Shown here: positions 1 to 7,286 of the stretch, piece after piece
How the letters are laid out: each line of letters opens with the position of its first letter
How positions within the stretch are numbered: position 1 is the first letter of the stretch
Source: Anaerovoracaceae bacterium
GTDB lineage: Bacteria > Bacillota > Clostridia > Peptostreptococcales > Anaerovoracaceae
Length of the DNA stretch: 64,000 nucleotides
Direction of reading: 5' to 3'
NCBI GenBank assembly: GCA_045639825.1
Contig: JAZUDV010000046.1
Location: 29,231-93,230 of the forward strand
Notes under the pieces: model-generated
Database searches by the model: none
Seen by the model: the letters and a program-made list of their open reading frames with translations, nothing else
What the model was told of the DNA's origin: nothing
Made by a program: the position numbers and the translations under genes

Positions 1-164
1 TCATCCTCGAGTCTCAGTATTGCGGCTCTCATCTCTTCAATTACATTTCTTGCGGCATCCTTAACAACGGCAGCACCGTATCTTTCAGATAACACAAAAA
101 GAGGTTCCCGGCTAAGTACTTCATCTACCTTAGGAATTCCCCTTAATAAATCTTTCTTATTCAT
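1..164 (-). CDS. selA: L-seryl-tRNA(Sec) selenium transferase SelA, N-terminal 54 codons only (gene runs off the left edge)
   Basis: Not in the ORF track because it is too short within the window. ATG at 164-162 with GGAGGG (rc of 171-176) 6 nt upstream. Translation MNKKDLLRGIPKVDEVLSREPLFVLSERYGAAVVKDAARNVIEEMRAAILRLED fits the SelA N-terminal domain pattern (LLRxIPxVDxxL). It lies directly downstream of tRNA-Sec on the same strand. Confidence 0.6.
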   Translation of the reverse strand, partial: MNKKDLLRGIPKVDEVLSREPLFVLSERYGAAVVKDAARNVIEEMRAAILRLED

Positions 165-190
165 GCTTCTCCCTCCATAAACAACTAAGG

Positions 191-406: not shown

Positions 407-680
407 ATATTCACAGTGAATGCGCCCCTACCTGCCCTCTCAGGTGGCGAAAAGGCGCATATTTCACAACATGCGCAAACAGTTGATCATTTGGAGATAA
501 GGAAGTGATACCTATGCAGTCGTATATGACCGCATAGGTATCACTTTTCATTTCTATTTCATCACTACACATGCAACCTCCAACACGCTTTCTCGTCAGT
601 CAGAAAGGAACGCACCTTGAGGCTTGATTTTGGACGAGGTAGGGGCGCGTTTCTTGTGAATATCGATCCTATTGCAATCA
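407..680. repeat. left inverted-repeat arm (IR-L)
   Basis: Outer motif ATATTCACAGTGAATGCGCCCCTACC (407-432). Inner inverted copy at 638-663 (rc ATATTCACAAGAAACGCGCCCCTACC, 22/26 identical). Perfect 13-bp hairpin GTGATACCTATGC...GCATAGGTATCAC at 505-544. Homology to the right arm continues to 680, and a degenerate third motif copy lies at 681-708. Confidence 0.85.
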
Positions 681-888
681 GCAGCGCGTTTTTTGTGAAT
701 TGTAATATGAATCCCTGCTGCCACAAGAACTCGAAGTCGCCGATGTAAATAATGTCTTGAACAATACAAGATACCCATGAAATCCTACATTCTTGAACCG
801 TATTATTTATAATTGATGACTATAGTATCGCGTTGCAGTATAAATAAATCTCTACTTTGAAACAGAAGAATAAACGGAAAGGATTAAT

Positions 889-1710
889 ATGAATATTCTC
901 GAATACGCTGAAAGAGAGAAGCAACGCGCTGAACGTGAGCTAAAGCAAAAGAAAGCTGAGCTCCGAAAGCTATCGCGTGGTCGGCTTGAATGTCATAGAC
1001 GTGGCAACAATTGGACGTGGAAAATCGTCACTAATGGAAAGAAAAAATATCTATCTAAGCGCAAACATACTCAAATTGCAGAGTCGCTAGCATACAAGCG
1101 TAAGCTTCAGCAAGACATCGATTACTTGGATAATCATATATGTGCGTTAACCTCATTTATTCGAATGGATTCACCTGCGCGAGTGAATATTCCCAAGGAT
1201 AAGCGTTCCAAAACAAACGAGGAAATAGATAGGTTGGCTAAGGCATATTATGACAGAACTCATCCTGAAATAACCGCAAAGCGCTTGTCTAATCAAATTG
1301 CACTTGAAGAAAATATTCAAAAATTCAAAGGAAAAGACATCGAGAAAGCAGAGTACCCTATTAAATCAATGTGGGGTCTACGCTTTCGTTCCAAATCTGA
1401 AGCATTGATTTATGAACGTCTTCGTGCCCATGATTTGTTGGTTTTATATGAATCTGACCTCGAGATAAATGGCAAAATGCGCAGCCCTGATTTCATAGTA
1501 TATAACAGACGTACCAATCAACCTATTGTGTGGGAGCACTTTGGTAAAATGAATAGTCCAGGTTATCTTAACAAAAACAAGAATAAAATACTTCAATACC
1601 TTGAAGCCGGTTATATTCCTAACATCAACATGATTGCAACCTTTGAAATTGATGATAATAGTATAGATTTGCAATATATCGAATCATTGATAGAAGTTTT
1701 TTTATTATAA
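889..1710 (+). CDS. hypothetical protein: coiled-coil N-terminus plus C-terminal PD-(D/E)XK-like (TnsA/Vsr-like) nuclease core
   Basis: 273-aa ORF with an AAAGGA SD 7 nt upstream of the ATG. The N-terminus EREKQRAERELKQKKAELRKL is coiled-coil-like. The C-terminus reads RFRSKSEALIYERLRAHDLLVLYESDLEINGKMRSPDFIVYNRRTNQPIVWEHFGK, which fits a restriction-endonuclease-fold pattern (S.SE...PDF.V...hWEHxG). It looks AT-richer than neighbouring genes by eye. The family assignment is not verified. Confidence 0.6.
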   Translation: MNILEYAEREKQRAERELKQKKAELRKLSRGRLECHRRGNNWTWKIVTNGKKKYLSKRKHTQIAESLAYKRKLQQDIDYLDNHICALTSFIRMDSPARVNIPKDKRSKTNEEIDRLAKAYYDRTHPEITAKRLSNQIALEENIQKFKGKDIEKAEYPIKSMWGLRFRSKSEALIYERLRAHDLLVLYESDLEINGKMRSPDFIVYNRRTNQPIVWEHFGKMNSPGYLNKNKNKILQYLEAGYIPNINMIATFEIDDNSIDLQYIESLIEVFLL

Positions 1711-1731
1711 TGTCGTTCTGCCAATGTTGGT

Positions 1732-2004
1732 TGATTGCAATAGAATCGATATTCACAAGAAATGCGCCCCTATCTCATCAAAAATCAAGCCTCAAGGTGC
1801 GTTTCTTTCTGACTGACGAGCAAGCGAGTTGGATGTTGCGTATGTAGTAATGAAATAGAAATGAAAAGTGATACCTATGCGTTCATATACGACCGATAGG
1901 TATCACTTCCTTATCTCCAAACAATCAACTGTTTGCGCACGTTGTGAAATATGCGCCTTTTCGCCACCTGAGAAGGCAGGTAGGGGCGCATTCGTTGTGA
2001 ATAT
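1732..2004. repeat. right inverted-repeat arm (IR-R)
   Basis: Reverse complement matches 407-680. Inner motif ATATTCACAAGAAATGCGCCCCTATC starts at 1749. Outer end is GGTAGGGGCGCATTCGTTGTGAATAT, ending at 2004. The hairpin at 1868-1906 is reduced to 11 bp by substitutions. Confidence 0.85.
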
Positions 2005-2024: not shown

Positions 2025-2270
2025 CTACTGATTCTGAGCGGCTCTCAGTGCTTTGCAGAGCTGATCCGAGCAGGATGTCGGCTTGAAACCGCACCTGATC
2101 CCTTCAAGTTTCTCGCAAGCCTCATCAACAGTCATTCCGGCAACCAACCTGGATACAGCCTGCAGATTGCCATGGCATCCGCCGGTAAATGTAACTTCTT
2201 TAATTATGTCTCCATCGAGTTCCAGCTCTATCATCTGTGAGCAGACGCCCTGAGGGTAGTATACGAACAT
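2025..2270 (-). CDS. TSCPD domain-containing small Cys-rich protein (TIGR03905-like)
   Basis: 81 aa, with GGCHGN and FKPTSCSDQL motifs and GGAG 7 nt upstream of the ATG. Confidence 0.75.
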   Translation of the reverse strand: MFVYYPQGVCSQMIELELDGDIIKEVTFTGGCHGNLQAVSRLVAGMTVDEACEKLEGIRCGFKPTSCSDQLCKALRAAQNQ

Positions 2271-2336: not shown

Positions 2337-2912
2337 TTACAGTCCGATCTCGTCTGCGATTTCCAGCATTGACTCGATAGAGATGTCGATGAACTCATCC
2401 CAGCTGATGCCGGTCTTCTCGATTAGCATCATATACTGTCTGTTAGCGCCGGCAGCGAATCTTGTTTCGTTATATCTCTTGGCAACAGATTTGTGCTTAA
2501 CGCTTGCAAGCTTCTTATCAGGATAGATCTGAGCAACAGCCTTAACAAATCCACTCATCGGGTCAGCAGCGATAAGTGCATACTCCAATGTAGTTTCCGG
2601 ATTCTTGCCGCAAGTTGGGTTATGAGCCATGATAGCATTTGTCATTCTCTCATCGTCATATCCTTCGTCCTGCAGAATCTTCTTGGATGTTGGACCATGT
2701 GTTGACAGGTCTTCTCTCCATGGGCAAGTTTCCTCGTCCAGGTCATGAAGCAGTCCACAGATACCCCAGTATTCAACTTCATCCGGTGCCAGCTTCTTAG
2801 CCAGACCCTTCATGATAGCCTCAACCGCCATACTATGAGTAATATAATTCTCTCCCTTAACATGCTTGTTCAGGATTTCCCAAGCCTTATCTCTTGTTAA
2901 TGTATCTGCCAT
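2337..2912 (-). CDS. HD/HDIG-domain metal-dependent phosphohydrolase
   Basis: HD motif in ICGLLHDLDEE. I prefer the start at MADTLTRDK (ATG 2912-2910), which has GGAGG (rc of 2919-2923) 6 nt upstream, over the track start at 2945. Confidence 0.8.
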   Translation of the reverse strand: MADTLTRDKAWEILNKHVKGENYITHSMAVEAIMKGLAKKLAPDEVEYWGICGLLHDLDEETCPWREDLSTHGPTSKKILQDEGYDDERMTNAIMAHNPTCGKNPETTLEYALIAADPMSGFVKAVAQIYPDKKLASVKHKSVAKRYNETRFAAGANRQYMMLIEKTGISWDEFIDISIESMLEIADEIGL

Positions 2913-2922
2913 CTTATGCCTC

Positions 2923-3750
2923 CTAGCTTTCAATTGAAATAGCAAGTTTTACTACCTTGGTAAAGGTCTCCTCTACCTTGCTTCTGTTATCGAAAATATC
3001 TTGTCCGCTAATCGCTTTGCCCATAATACCGGCTGCCCAGTTAGACAAGAATGAAATACCTATTATTTCAAGGCCTGCCTGATTGGCAACAATAGCTTCC
3101 GGAACGCTGGACATACCTACTGCATCAGCTCCGATAACTCTCAAGAACCTGATTTCAGCAGGTGTTTCGAATGAAGGGCCATGCATCATTGTATAAACGC
3201 CTTCTCTGATTGGAATATCCTGATCGAAACAAGCTCTCTTCAGTTTCTTTCTCAATTCCTTATTATATGTGTCTGTCATATCAGGGAAACGTGGACCAAA
3301 TTCTTCAAGATTCTTACCTATCAGCGGATTGTCTCCCGATAAATTAATATGATCGCTGATAAGCATTAAATCACACTCATTCCAATCTGTATTGATACAA
3401 CCGGCCGCATTGGTGATAATTAATCTCTTAATTCCGAGCTTGATCAGAACCCTTACAGGAAGAGTAACCTCCTGCATTTGAAATCCTTCATAGAAATGGA
3501 ATCTTCCGGCAAGAGCGATTACCTTCTTCCCATCGACCAATCCATATGTAACGACACCGGTGTGTCCCTGAACATGAGGCTGTTTAAAACCCGGGATATC
3601 TGTATACTTAATTTCAGTAATTACATCAATCTGTTTAGAGAAATCATTTAATCCTGAACCAAGTATAATTCCGACCTCGGCATCTCCAACACCTCTGTTT
3701 CTTAAATAAGCTGTAGCGCCTTCAATTAAGTTAGTTAGTGAAATATCCAT
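2923..3750 (-). CDS. punA: purine nucleoside phosphorylase (PunA-type)
   Basis: 275 aa with IILGSGL, GRFHFYEG and ITNAAG motifs, typical of trimeric PNP. Confidence 0.85.
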   Translation of the reverse strand: MDISLTNLIEGATAYLRNRGVGDAEVGIILGSGLNDFSKQIDVITEIKYTDIPGFKQPHVQGHTGVVTYGLVDGKKVIALAGRFHFYEGFQMQEVTLPVRVLIKLGIKRLIITNAAGCINTDWNECDLMLISDHINLSGDNPLIGKNLEEFGPRFPDMTDTYNKELRKKLKRACFDQDIPIREGVYTMMHGPSFETPAEIRFLRVIGADAVGMSSVPEAIVANQAGLEIIGISFLSNWAAGIMGKAISGQDIFDNRSKVEETFTKVVKLAISIES

Positions 3751-3759
3751 ACTATTCTC

Positions 3760-4785
3760 CTATTTAATTAACAACTCAGCAATCTGAACTGCATTTGTTG
3801 CCGCGCCCTTTCTTACCTGATCGCCGCAACACCACAGATTAATACCATTTTCATTAGCCAAATCTCTTCTGATTCTGCCTACATAAACCAAATCCTGATT
3901 AGAGGTCTCGAGTGGCATTGGATATACGTGATTGTCGCCATCATCGCAAAGCTTGCATCCTGCAGCAGCCTCGACAGCCTTGCGAACAGCATCAATCTCG
4001 AGTCTGGACTCGGTAATTACGCATGCAGAAATCGCATGTGAACGCTCAACCGGCACACGTACGCAAGTACAGCTGACATTCAGCTCCGGAAGGTGCATGA
4101 TTTTGCGGCCCTCATTCTGGAGCTTCATTTCCTCACTTGAATATCCGTTCTCACCAAATCCGCCAATCTGCGGGATCAGGTTGAATGCAATCTGATGCTG
4201 GAAGACATGTGGTTCCGCCTTAACACCGTAATAAACACCGGCTTCACCCGCATTGCGTCCGTCAATTACCTGCTCAGCCTGAGCGTACATTTCCTTAGGA
4301 CCGGCAGCTCCTGCACCGCTTGTTGCCTGATAAGTTGATGCATACATAGCTTTAATCGGGCTCAGCTTGTTGATTGCGTTAACTGCAACGAGTGTGATAA
4401 TTGTTGAGCAGTTAGGATTGGAGATAATTCCGTTGTGCTTGAGCGCATCCTCAGGATTAATCTCCGGAACAACCAGCGGAACATCCGGATTGAGTCTGAA
4501 AGCACTTGAATTATCAACGAAAACAGCTCCGGCTGCTTTGATGTGAGGTGCCATCGCCTCAGCGATGTCGTTCTCGCTGGCACCGAGAACGATGTCCAGT
4601 CCCTCGAAAGCCTCAGGGCATGTACGCTGGACAGTCACCTCACCAAAGGCGGTCTGCAACTTCTTGCCCTCAGATCTCTCACTTGCAAGACATCTCAACT
4701 CATCAACCGGAAAGTTTCTCTCTCTAAGTATTTTTATCATTTCCTGGCCGACAGCTCCTGTCGCACCCATAATACCTACTTTCAT
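3760..4785 (-). CDS. asd: aspartate-semialdehyde dehydrogenase
   Basis: 341 aa with GATGAVG at the N-terminus and the active-site context SNPNCSTI. Adjacent to aspartate kinase and hom. Confidence 0.92.
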   Translation of the reverse strand: MKVGIMGATGAVGQEMIKILRERNFPVDELRCLASERSEGKKLQTAFGEVTVQRTCPEAFEGLDIVLGASENDIAEAMAPHIKAAGAVFVDNSSAFRLNPDVPLVVPEINPEDALKHNGIISNPNCSTIITLVAVNAINKLSPIKAMYASTYQATSGAGAAGPKEMYAQAEQVIDGRNAGEAGVYYGVKAEPHVFQHQIAFNLIPQIGGFGENGYSSEEMKLQNEGRKIMHLPELNVSCTCVRVPVERSHAISACVITESRLEIDAVRKAVEAAAGCKLCDDGDNHVYPMPLETSNQDLVYVGRIRRDLANENGINLWCCGDQVRKGAATNAVQIAELLIK

Positions 4786-4798
4786 CTATCCTCTCCTC

Positions 4799-6124
4799 TT
4801 AACAAGCAAAACTGTCATACAAGATCTTAACAGTTTTGTTAAAGTCCTCAGTATATACGCAGATCATAATCGTAATCTCATCAGCGCCCTGCTCGATTGT
4901 TCTAATGTTGATCTTGTTATCTCCAAGTGCACCGAAAATACGTCCGGAAACACCTGTCCTATAAGCCATCTGGCGTCCGACAATTGCGATAAGGCTGACG
5001 CCATCTGTAATATCGCATCTGTCAATCTGAGTTTCCTCGCGAAGCGCCGCCATAATCTCATACTTCTTTCCATCGATAGCCTCACTCGGAACAACTACAG
5101 AAATGCTGTCCACACCGGTAGGAATCTGCTCGATAGGAACATCATATTTATCGAAAATTGCCAGAACCTTACGCAGCAAAATGATTTTGTCCTCACCCAG
5201 ACTGGACTCATAAACATTGACTATTGAGAAGTCCTTCTTACCTGCAATGCCTGTAATGAAGCGATCCTTCTCTTCCTTGCTGTCGTGTTCAAAATCCTCA
5301 CGGATGATTGTGCCCGGGTTATCCGGTTCATTGGTATTCCTGATGTTAACAGGGATGTCGTTGATTCTTACAGGGAAAATCGTATCCTCATGCAGAACAG
5401 CAGCTCCCATATAGGAAAGCGCACGGAGCTCGTCATAAGTGACATGCTCGATAGTCTTAGGATTATCGACAATGCGCGGATCCACCATCTTGATACCATT
5501 TACATCTGTCCAATTCTCGTATATGGATGCCTTTACAGCAGCCGCAGCAATAGCACCGGTAATGTCCGAACCTCCACGACTGAACACCTTGATGTCACCG
5601 TTAGGCATTGCGCCATAGAAACCAGGTGTAACGATTTTGCCGTAAACGCCGTACAGCTCGTTTAAATTATTCTCCGACTTAGCAAAGTCAACCTCGCCCT
5701 TGAAGTTGAATACCAGCCATTCAGCTGCATCTACGAACTTAAATCCGAGGTACTCAGCCATCAGCATTGCGCAGAAATACTCACCTCTTGACGCAATGTA
5801 ATCAACGCTTGTTCTCTTAGTCATCTCGTCGAAAACTTTGTTTATTTCCGATTCGATGTCAAAGGTAAGACCGCATTCGTTCCTTATCTCTACATATCTG
5901 TCGACAATCATTTTCTTAATATTATCGAAAGGCACATCATATTTCAGATGTGCATGGCAGAGATATAACAAATCGGTAATCTTGCTATCTTCCGAATCAC
6001 GACGGCCGGGAGCACTTACAACAACAACGTTGCGGCTCTCGTCCGACTCAACTATTTTCTTAACCTTGGCGAACTGAGCACTACTTGCAAGGCTCGAGCC
6101 GCCGAATTTTAGTACTTTGATCAT
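4799..6124 (-). CDS. aspartate kinase (monofunctional)
   Basis: 441 aa starting MIKVLKFGGSSL (amino-acid kinase N-terminus) with a C-terminal ACT-like region. GGAG SD upstream. Confidence 0.9.
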   Translation of the reverse strand: MIKVLKFGGSSLASSAQFAKVKKIVESDESRNVVVVSAPGRRDSEDSKITDLLYLCHAHLKYDVPFDNIKKMIVDRYVEIRNECGLTFDIESEINKVFDEMTKRTSVDYIASRGEYFCAMLMAEYLGFKFVDAAEWLVFNFKGEVDFAKSENNLNELYGVYGKIVTPGFYGAMPNGDIKVFSRGGSDITGAIAAAAVKASIYENWTDVNGIKMVDPRIVDNPKTIEHVTYDELRALSYMGAAVLHEDTIFPVRINDIPVNIRNTNEPDNPGTIIREDFEHDSKEEKDRFITGIAGKKDFSIVNVYESSLGEDKIILLRKVLAIFDKYDVPIEQIPTGVDSISVVVPSEAIDGKKYEIMAALREETQIDRCDITDGVSLIAIVGRQMAYRTGVSGRIFGALGDNKINIRTIEQGADEITIMICVYTEDFNKTVKILYDSFAC

Positions 6125-6155: not shown

Positions 6156-7286
6156 TTACTCTTTAACTGCCGCAAAGAACAGCTTTAACTTTTTGGCTGC
6201 ACAGGTGCGTGCAATCATATGCATCTCTGCAACAGATACCTTCTTAGCTATACCGCGCTTGCCGTTGTAGCTGAGATAATATGATTGAACCTCACTGTTA
6301 TTATCTATTATTACCGGCTCACTGTTGTAGATATGCTGAACCGGTCCTCCCTGCATAATATCAACTACGTCCTGGATTACGGATTCGCCTGTCGGCAACA
6401 TACCGGCACCCTGTCCATAGAAGCTCTGCGTTCCGATACTCTCACCAACAAGAGTTATTAGGTTGTTGTTGGTACCGACATTCGCCTCTAGAGTATCTGC
6501 CTTGAAGAGTGTTGGCTCAACATAAACCGTTATCCTGCCATCGCCCACTCTTCTTGCATTCATCATAAGTTTGCAGGTATAGCCATGTTCGTTGAACCAT
6601 TCAATGTCTTTCTTATCAATCTTATCTATTCCACAGCATGGAACGTCCTGTTCGTTAATAACAGTATTGAATGCGATATTAGCACTAATTACGGTCTTGC
6701 GAAGAGTGTCTGTTCCTTCAACGTCTGAAGATGGATCCGCCTCTGCATAGCCGAGTTCCTGTGCCTTCTTAAGAACCTGTGAGTAGTCGGCTCCATCCTT
6801 GTGCATCGCATCAAGAATGTAATTGCAGGTTCCATTCACTATGCCCCTGACTTCAAGAATCTTGTCACAGCGTTTAGTTCTCTCAAGGTTGTACAGCCAA
6901 GGAATTCCACCTCCTGCTGTCGGAGTGAACTTTAAGGTGACGTCATTATCAAGAGCAGTACACATCAGTTCATCATAGCATGCACTGATAAGATTCTTGT
7001 TAGGCGTTACAACATGTTTTCCTGCATTCAAGCATGCCAGAACATATTCTCTTGCAGGCTCTACTCCGCCCATTGACTCAACAACAACATCAATGCTGTC
7101 ATCCTGCCATATTTCTTCAGGAGCTGCCGTAAAAATGCCGAGATTTCCGTCATCTTTCAATGTGCCTTCATACTCAGGACGAAGCCTTCTTGAGAAGATT
7201 TTTACAACCTCGACGCCAGCTGTTTCTTTTGCAATTGTGTAGGCACCAAATCCAACGGTGCCAAATCCCATGATTCCTATCTTCAT
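6156..7286 (-). CDS. hom: homoserine dehydrogenase
   Basis: 376 aa with a GFGTVG NAD-binding loop and GYAEADPS motif. First gene of the hom, aspartate kinase, asd string. Confidence 0.88.
   Translation of the reverse strand: MKIGIMGFGTVGFGAYTIAKETAGVEVVKIFSRRLRPEYEGTLKDDGNLGIFTAAPEEIWQDDSIDVVVESMGGVEPAREYVLACLNAGKHVVTPNKNLISACYDELMCTALDNDVTLKFTPTAGGGIPWLYNLERTKRCDKILEVRGIVNGTCNYILDAMHKDGADYSQVLKKAQELGYAEADPSSDVEGTDTLRKTVISANIAFNTVINEQDVPCCGIDKIDKKDIEWFNEHGYTCKLMMNARRVGDGRITVYVEPTLFKADTLEANVGTNNNLITLVGESIGTQSFYGQGAGMLPTGESVIQDVVDIMQGGPVQHIYNSEPVIIDNNSEVQSYYLSYNGKRGIAKKVSVAEMHMIARTCAAKKLKLFFAAVKE

Follow-up and report, generated by a model that had tools for sequence, protein, structure and literature searches.

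An accessory nuclease-like gene enclosed by mirrored, structured modules that travel with it

Introduction

Pairings of a nuclease with its own repeats have proved to be important biology and useful tools, as in CRISPR, RAYT/REP, type III toxin-antitoxin systems and the RNAs of IS110 and IS605. Here we describe a cassette at positions 407–2004 of a 64,000-nucleotide stretch from an Anaerovoracaceae bacterium (contig JAZUDV010000046.1, positions 29,231 to 93,230; this whole stretch is called the window), in which a single gene for a 273-aa nuclease-like protein lies between two mirrored arms. Loci used for comparison carry L numbers. Judged from sequence comparison, the cassette would be an accessory, horizontally exchanged unit whose mirrored modules act in cis as boundary elements working as folded single strands, with inversion and homogenisation as by-products; this is the interpretation we favour, with slightly less than even confidence.

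By analogy of architecture, RAYT/REP is the closest precedent, and type III toxin-antitoxin loci are the next. A RAYT is a nuclease gene present in single copy between inverted palindromes that are cognate to it and diverge along with it (PMC3337134). The cassette is similar in that a single-copy nuclease-type gene lies between cognate inverted palindromic repeats, the repeat sequence is specific to each gene lineage, and many members are stable residents (PMC3337134). In contrast to the HUH/Y1 (IS200-like) transposase of RAYT/REP, however, the enzyme here is of predicted PD-(D/E)XK fold, and the repeats are 257-bp modules or tandem units of 40–75 nt with no dispersed copies in the window or the fetched loci. 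Type III loci are built from tandem repeats, a palindromic terminator and a toxin gene, in that order (PMC3401426). As in toxIN, cptIN and tenpIN, structured non-coding repeats adjoin the nuclease gene in the cassette, a hairpin and T-tract stand between the upstream repeat and the gene, and many members of the wider protein family carry tandem arrays. The differences are that the type III toxin has another fold, that the window holds mirrored single modules, that arrays occur on either side of the gene, and that toxicity is only hypothesised here. The cassette therefore belongs to neither class, on enzyme fold and on other defining features.

Composites bounded by two copies of a MITE (a miniature transposable element with inverted repeats) are also known, as TIME-COMPs and integron mobilization units (PMC13367494), and the cassette shares with them two inverted elements of ~250–300 bp with terminal inverted repeats around a gene (PMC13367494). 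Unlike theirs, its cargo is always the same gene family, diverging with the arms, and it has no trans-acting transposase family, no target-site duplication and, in the sequences searched, no solo copies. Compared with insertion sequences and transposons, it lacks a recognised DDE, HUH, serine or tyrosine transposase (Pfam, NCBIfam, PHROGs), sharp ends at the terminal repeats and a target-site duplication. A first-pass annotation of the window had already stated that the locus matches no named element class, a view that these comparisons support, and we found no description of an association between this nuclease family and hairpin repeats.

Overall architecture of the cassette and its arms

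A BLASTN comparison of the region with the whole window aligns 407–680 with the reverse complement of 1732–2004 over 274 columns at 92.3% identity (E = 5.5e-112), and all coordinates of the first-pass annotation hold. No third copy of an arm is found by BLASTN or by an arm profile in the 64-kb window, of which 62 kb lie outside the cassette. The sole long open reading frame (ORF) between the arms, at 889–1710 on the plus strand, encodes 273 aa and begins with an ATG preceded by a GGA-rich Shine-Dalgarno sequence. It is indeed more AT-rich than its surroundings, as had been noted, with a GC fraction of 0.33–0.43 against 0.42–0.51 in the flanking genes. The cassette lies, as described, between the promoter of the tRNA-Sec gene (selC) and the stop codon of the TSCPD gene.

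The internal anatomy of the arms was overlooked in the first-pass annotation. Each arm is a module of ~257 bp with its own 27-nt terminal inverted repeats and a central 22-bp hairpin followed by a T-tract. The left arm (407–680, plus strand) consists of the module at 407–663 plus 17 nt common to the right arm, and its canonical orientation reads into the cassette; the right arm (1732–2004, minus strand) consists of the mirrored module at 1749–2004 plus the common extension at 1732–1748, so that similarity between the arms overruns the inner repeat by 17 nt. In the left module the outer terminal repeat ATATTCACAGTGAATGCGCCCCTACCT (407–433) pairs with the inner one (637–663), and in the right module the inner repeat (1749–1775) pairs with the outer one (1978–2004). 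A partial third copy of the terminal-repeat motif, GCGCGTTTTTTGTGAAT, is located at 676–702 on the plus strand, 13 nt inside the left arm, and is 70% identical to 637–663. Nothing corresponds to it on the right side, and it may be left over from a former boundary of the arm.

Compared with shuffled sequence, both arms form much more stable folds (left, z = -6.2; right, z = -6.8). The left central hairpin (503–546) is followed by the T-rich tract TTTTCATTTCTATTTC, the whole spanning 503–562 on the plus strand with an RNA fold of -30.8 kcal/mol (z = -8.8). Its right counterpart (hairpin 1866–1908, likewise followed by TTTTCATTTCTATTTC on the minus strand, the whole spanning 1848–1908) has a minus-strand RNA fold of -26.2 kcal/mol (z = -6.3). 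Hairpin and T-tract thus face into the cassette from both sides, on the strand that reads inward; from sequence, each resembles a terminator, the left one for transcripts that come in from the left and the right one for those that come in from the TSCPD side. An alignment of 11 arms, analysed with RNAalifold, contains a 22-pair terminal stem and the central hairpin, and compensatory double changes occur in 16 of 32 pairs; ATATTCACA/TGTGAATAT in the window, for example, becomes ATCGCCGCA/TGTGGCGAT in L003 and AAAACTCCCTC/GGGGGAGTTTT in L007. Across the subfamily, a terminal stem of 22–27 bp and the central hairpin with its T-tract are preserved by such changes. On the inward-reading strand, the non-Watson-Crick cells of the terminal stem comprise 13 G-T and a single A-C, a wobble bias that hints at selection of the stem as a folded single strand. 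The only Rfam match with the cassette is tRNA-Sec.

In the simplest version of the interpretation that we favour, the modules would be insulators that face inward and act by termination or processing, so that a nuclease gene with the potential to do harm is protected from read-through at every site the cassette reaches. The long inverted arm pair would undergo gene conversion between the arms and would permit occasional RecA-type inversion of the core, and the cassette would spread horizontally as one unit. If true, this modest proposal would describe a natural, portable transcription insulator around a harmful gene, and it would also explain why metagenome assemblies break at these loci.

The encoded protein has a predicted nuclease fold

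The 273-aa protein matches no entry in Pfam, NCBIfam, PHROGs or the sequences of the PDB, which bears out the earlier statement that no transposase or integrase family is recognisable in the ORF. An AF2 model (predicted local distance difference test, pLDDT, 77 overall and 77–89 in the nuclease domain) supports a restriction-endonuclease-like (PD-(D/E)XK) fold for residues ~150–273, and the model with its Foldseek neighbours upholds the PD-(D/E)XK-like call of the first-pass annotation. Foldseek against the PDB places the protein near Bax1, 3ijm, DrdV and the restriction-like endonuclease (RLE) of R2 (probability 1.0, E = 2.6e-3 to 5e-2), and also near XisH and Hjc, while the viral structures found nearby comprise phage endonucleases, annotated homing endonucleases, DUF2726, endonuclease I and Vsr (viral endonucleases, probability 1.0, E = 3.6e-4). 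A profile of the family finds only T7 endonuclease I among PDB sequences, marginally (E = 0.25). The N-terminal ~150 aa are modelled as a helix, a three-stranded sheet and long helices; modelled alone (pLDDT 84), this domain has no significant structural match.

Residues R167, S168, K169, E171, Y187, E188, D201, F202, W215–G219 and K233 are invariant in 32 aligned sequences. The predicted catalytic layout would be formed by E171, D201 (in PDF) and E216, all three invariant; the third motif is W-E-H-F-G and the canonical (D/E)xK lysine is absent, a role in which the invariant K169 or K233 may substitute. Fold and motif layout (an E-bearing helix, a beta strand ending in YE, PDF and an E-containing strand) are like those of free-standing PD-(D/E)XK, Vsr-like and T7 endonuclease I-like nucleases, among them phage homing endonucleases, TnsA and junction resolvases. 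The protein differs from these in its marginal sequence similarity, in the W-E-H-F-G that replaces the (D/E)xK lysine and in the extra 150-aa N-terminal domain, and its gene is neither in an intron or intein nor next to TnsB-like genes. Against its L005 orthologue, the ratio of nonsynonymous to synonymous substitution (dN/dS) is 0.06, indicating purifying selection and therefore a functional gene.

The sole PADLOC match is the C-terminus of PDC-S68, which aligns with the C-terminal half of the protein (E = 3e-20). A homologue of the nuclease domain forms a C-terminal domain of a 1251-aa AAA family ATPase on Bacillus cereus plasmids (NZ_AP022916.1; L175, 2695–6450), and this ATPase probably corresponds to the PADLOC candidate PDC-S68. 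Its gene has a site-specific integrase on one side and DISARM drmA on the other, in what looks like a defence-island setting.

Modules and gene recur together in unrelated genomic contexts

Only 13 close homologues, 42–99% identical, are found among 5.8 billion proteins. Most are on contigs of ~1–1.3 kb, which is expected if the flanking repeats break assemblies, and the L004 contig terminates within both arms. Three relatives share the selC/TSCPD locus of the window: L005 (protein 88% identical) and L008 (76%) with arms present, and L007 (53%) with one arm on a short contig. In L003 (54%) the gene is found in a TelA/LOR context between 268-nt arms that are 92–93% alike, and L009 (54%) is a 1.5-kb contig with an arm at each end. 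In Candidatus Crickella equi (L001/L002; 51%), inverted repeats of 348 nt lie 2.7 kb apart and enclose GntR, GHMP kinase and nuclease genes, in GntR-GHMP kinase/trypsin surroundings. The arms of all these loci (window, L005, L008, L003, L009, L007 and L001/L002) are homologous and can be aligned, down to ~45% arm identity. The cassette is thus present in at least three unrelated genomic contexts, and diverged relatives, including L096, occupy at least three kinds of site other than that of the window.

An nhmmer search with the arm profile returns matches beside the subfamily gene only, with no solo or dispersed arms in the rest of the window or in ~170 other loci, and a pattern of the end motif has no match in genome, metagenome or viral collections. 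These comparisons show that the modules belong to the gene subfamily, inherited and relocated with the gene, and are not generic repeats. They bear directly on the proposal, made in the first-pass annotation, that a cargo gene is trapped between two MITEs. Such a chance composite would consist of an unrelated gene caught between two MITE copies whose transposase is encoded elsewhere in the genome. The anatomy of the arms is formally MITE-like (~257 bp, non-coding, with 27-nt terminal inverted repeats), and composites of this kind have been described, as noted above. However, in all lineages found, this gene subfamily is flanked by one and the same module family, which co-diverges with it; no solo copy is present in the window, the ~170 loci or the three collections searched; there is no target-site duplication and similarity overruns the terminal repeats; and the distant family member L096 has an unrelated module in the same layout. 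The proposal does not survive these observations well, and we regard a chance composite as very improbable.

Around the Crickella cassette, four copies of a perfect 26-nt hairpin (AAGGACGGCTCACACGAGCCGTCCTT-like) are observed at 3691–3757, 4108–4133 and 7128–7153 of L001. There, arm similarity overruns the module by ~100 nt because two of these 26-nt hairpins lie inside the outer part of the inverted repeat.

The cassette is accessory at a variable site

The TSCPD gene (2025–2270, minus strand; 81 aa; stop codon 2025–2027) and the HD-domain gene behind it (2337–2912, minus strand) form the right context of the cassette and serve as conserved flanks for locus comparison. The host is a Mogibacterium-like organism. 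Relatives whose HD protein is 85–88% identical lack the cassette. In L092 the gene order is PNP-HD-TSCPD-cysK-cysE-tRNA-Sec, in L093 a cysK-like gene directly follows TSCPD, in L176 and L177 a PALP gene directly follows HD, and in L091 another ORF follows TSCPD. The first-pass annotation called for a search for empty selC/TSCPD junctions; cassette-free relatives do exist, but none of them is a clean empty site, cysK-cysE or other genes being present there. These bacteria differ in what lies downstream of TSCPD, and the accessory status of the cassette is clear. Between TSCPD and tRNA-Sec, where the window has the cassette (288–2024), relatives have cysK-like and cysE-like genes (L092, 4073–6076; L093, 5976–6575), and neither gene is found anywhere in the 64-kb window.

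The flanks and the gene differ in how far they have diverged. Window, L005 and L007 have approximately equidistant flanks (HD 95–96% and TSCPD 85–88% identical), with saturated dS of 1.4–2.1. In contrast, nuclease dN is 0.05 against L005 and 0.40 against L007 (88% vs 53% protein identity), and in the comparison with L005 the nuclease dS is 0.85 where that of HD is 2.1. Therefore, the history of the cassette differs from that of its flanks.

Some of these properties would suit an autonomous mobile element, one of the options of the first-pass annotation, in which the nuclease would be the mobility or homing enzyme, the modules would be complex transposon ends, and the cassette would excise or copy itself into intergenic sites. 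Unrelated contexts contain the same unit of arm, gene and arm, the arms being the outermost part that is homologous; this unit is accessory, has a higher AT content than its flanks and disagrees with them in phylogeny. Mirrored ends with a terminal motif present at least three times per arm are typical of transposase-binding ends, and among the structural neighbours of the protein are free-standing homing endonucleases of phages, T7 endonuclease I, Vsr and the R2 restriction-like endonuclease. We nevertheless consider a mobile element rather unlikely. The cassette is a single copy in 64 kb, and its end motif has no match in the three collections. The claim of the first-pass annotation that there is no clear target-site duplication stands and extends to three further loci, no direct repeat abutting the arms in the window, L005, L008 or L003 when these were read directly. 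No clean empty site was found among the cassette-free relatives, and the window and L005 have DNA of unlike length and sequence from the selC promoter to the arm, which leaves no precise insertion point. The overrun of arm similarity past the module ends (17 nt in the window, ~100 nt in L001), the two extra genes enclosed by the L001 arms and the many family members that are stable syntenic residents without arms also speak against it.

Inversion of the core and probable homogenisation of the arms

The gene lies in both orientations between the same flanks. Its 3′ end faces TSCPD in the window and in L005, and its 5′ end faces TSCPD in L007 and L008. L008 has the TSCPD C-terminus at its start and the selC promoter TTGAAATTGCAGGATTTTTTTGTTATTAT at its end, that is, both flanks of the window with the core inverted. 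Inversion breakpoints were sought from the arm halves of L005 and L008, and this was abandoned since the arms are too diverged to decide.

Arm-mediated flipping, as suggested in the first-pass annotation, is therefore borne out on an evolutionary scale (L007 and L008 against the window and L005) but not as a switch. A programmed invertible segment, with arm recombination flipping the core as a phase switch for transcription towards selC or TSCPD, would draw on the two orientations seen between the same flanks in related lineages, on perfect tracts of up to 33 nt shared by the window arms, which suffice for homologous recombination, and on the homogenisation of arms within some genomes. The promoter-like site and Shine-Dalgarno sequence of the gene, however, are inside the flipped segment, so flipping does not switch the gene. 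The arms of L005 and L008 are only 67% alike, which means that a recombination substrate is not maintained; neither the cassette nor any neighbouring gene that was read (selA, TSCPD, HD and PNP) encodes a recombinase; and the arm hairpins would block outward and inward read-through. A programmed switch is accordingly very unlikely.

Arm-to-arm identity is 92% in the window, 92% in L003, 84% in L001 and 67% in both L005 and L008. Despite this divergence, the stems and the hairpin are kept in all loci. Since the arms of L005 and L008 are so much less alike, the long near-identical repeat of the window is a local state, most simply the result of recent gene conversion, which would explain 92% identity in the window against 67% in sister lineages. 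Across the aligned arms, the conserved trait of the module is its structure.

The wider protein family and its hairpin arrays

A profile search with E values up to 1e-3 recovers 5,813 clusters (representatives at 50% identity), of which the best 150 are mostly 245–300 aa long. Relatives are present in 316 stretches of species-representative genomes and in at least 550 among the metagenome contigs listed. Their hosts are mainly Lachnospiraceae, Treponema, Fibrobacter and Sphaerochaetaceae of rumen, horse gut and human gut. The family has no Pfam match, and neighbour clustering at 84 loci reveals no conserved partner gene.

Repeats flank the gene in distant members as well. The gene of L096, with a protein only 28% identical, is framed by mirrored arms of 276 nt that are unrelated to those of the window and contain a terminal stem and a central hairpin, and L066 and L071 have inverted pairs of ~400 nt with one copy immediately after the gene. 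Repeat pairs bracketing the gene, with gaps of up to 3 kb, number 11 where 2.2 are expected (P = 2e-5). The first-pass annotation had asked whether homologues are recurrently flanked by long inverted repeats: these brackets and L096 say that they are more often than by chance, although most loci have none. Two sets of flanking direct repeats were set aside as unlike the arms: those of L038 are unstructured (z = -0.3), and those of L074 include duplicated tRNA-Gly genes. In L074, a Fibrobacter metagenome-assembled genome (MAG), two direct copies of tRNA-Gly(GCC) at 5618–5691 and 7127–7200, within direct repeats of ~115–270 nt, flank the family gene; the pair may be a duplication or an integration footprint. 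Adjacency to tRNA genes as a general target was rejected, with 3 of 60 loci.

The more widespread association is with tandem hairpin arrays. Tandem Repeats Finder (TRF) detects arrays no more than 500 nt from the gene in 61 of 166 loci. When loci are collapsed to lineages, 17 of 63 (27%) have an array, an enrichment of 9.5-fold relative to the remainder of the loci (P = 3e-11), and within 12-kb loci the arrays are concentrated beside the gene. Units of ~41, 52, 64 or 75 nt consist of a short GC hairpin and a linker that is purine-rich in some lineages, and arrays lie upstream of the gene in 9 cases and downstream in 13. In the L106 lineage, which is common in the human gut, the array (L106 4072–4902; also L108–L163) has 16 units of 52 nt and ends ~20 nt before the start codon, and its copy number varies from ~3 to 16 between metagenome samples of what seems to be one lineage. 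Other arrays are located at 6751–7138 of L013, at 5691–5821 and 6829–7126 of L014, at 6788–7103 of L034 and at 4885–5307 of L048. No Rfam family matches the arrays of the 12 array-bearing loci scanned. Self-complement palindrome scoring of 400-nt flanks across the family gave no difference from control genes; this metric is blind to the short hairpin arrays revealed by TRF.

It is tentatively conceivable, though we would not call it probable, that this ~265-aa PD-(D/E)XK family of gut and rumen bacteria forms with its adjacent lineage-specific repeats, whether tandem hairpin arrays or mirrored ~260-bp modules (as substrate, guide or antidote), a new system, of which the cassette in the window would be a self-contained, transferable form. 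Such a nuclease-repeat system would parallel RAYT/REP or type III toxin-antitoxin from unrelated parts. A family of thousands of clusters that has no Pfam model and no named function carries a statistically strong association with hairpin repeats, and in one of its subfamilies the repeats take the form of mirrored modules that move together with the gene. Should the repeats indeed be substrate or regulator of the enzyme, common gut and rumen bacteria would offer a new system open to experiment.

A rival reading is a partnership of protein and RNA, comparable to type III toxin-antitoxin or abortive-infection systems, in which repeat RNAs would bind and restrain a toxic nuclease. Tandem hairpin arrays that directly adjoin the gene family-wide, with copy number varying between samples, recall type III loci with their tandem repeats, palindromic terminator and toxin gene (PMC3401426). 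In the window, the upstream arm has a hairpin and T-tract before the gene, and the wobble bias of the terminal stem is towards one strand; the homologous domain in the 1251-aa ATPase beside DISARM genes and the match to the defence candidate PDC-S68 point in the same direction. The fold, however, is PD-(D/E)XK rather than ToxN/Kid-like, no tandem array is present in the window, and, as the arms are mirrored, only one of them is in sense orientation. Arrays are downstream about as often as upstream, the L106 array and gene have no terminator between them, and there is no matching Rfam family. We consider a partnership of this kind unlikely.

Evaluation of the favoured interpretation

Several observations weigh against the view that the modules are boundary elements of an exchanged cassette. 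With its nested repeats and conserved sequence blocks, a module of 257 bp greatly exceeds the complexity that a terminator requires. The central hairpin was not called by a consensus terminator scan, probably because of the loop-length rule of that scan. Moreover, with a working central terminator the 3′ half of the module would rarely be transcribed, so that the strand bias of the terminal stem needs another cause, such as single-stranded DNA or read-through RNA. The wobble cells are not independent, and both the wobble and the covariation counts are taken from related sequences. That gene and arms diverge in parallel demonstrates that they are linked, but is no proof that they interact functionally. 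Synonymous sites of the host genes are saturated, and the incongruence between cassette and flanks rests mainly on dN and a single dS contrast. Finally, ~60–70% of family loci have neither arrays nor bracketing repeats under the criteria used; assemblies from short reads, and MAGs, probably under-represent repeat-flanked loci.

Flanking genes and leader sequences

On the left of the cassette, the tRNA-Sec gene (selC) occupies 191–287 on the minus strand. Its promoter-like site, TTGAAA-17-TAATAT with an extended TG, is located at 341–313 on the same strand, 65 nt from the left arm, and tRNA-Sec in L092 and L008 is preceded by the same promoter motif. Read by eye, a selA-like ORF on the minus strand that starts at ~165 and runs off the window (1–165) reads like the N-terminus of SelA. 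On this reading selC and selA are adjacent, and the same layout is observed at the end of L092. On the right, no record was found of a protein identical to the TSCPD protein of the window.

Upstream of tRNA-Sec, the window contains a GTACGACCATGTACGA stretch at ~288–305. In L008, degenerate GTACGA-containing repeats extend from the selC promoter to the end of the contig (1850–1943), a run that is far longer than the GTACGACCATGTACGA stretch of the window and that is a variable leader upstream of tRNA-Sec.

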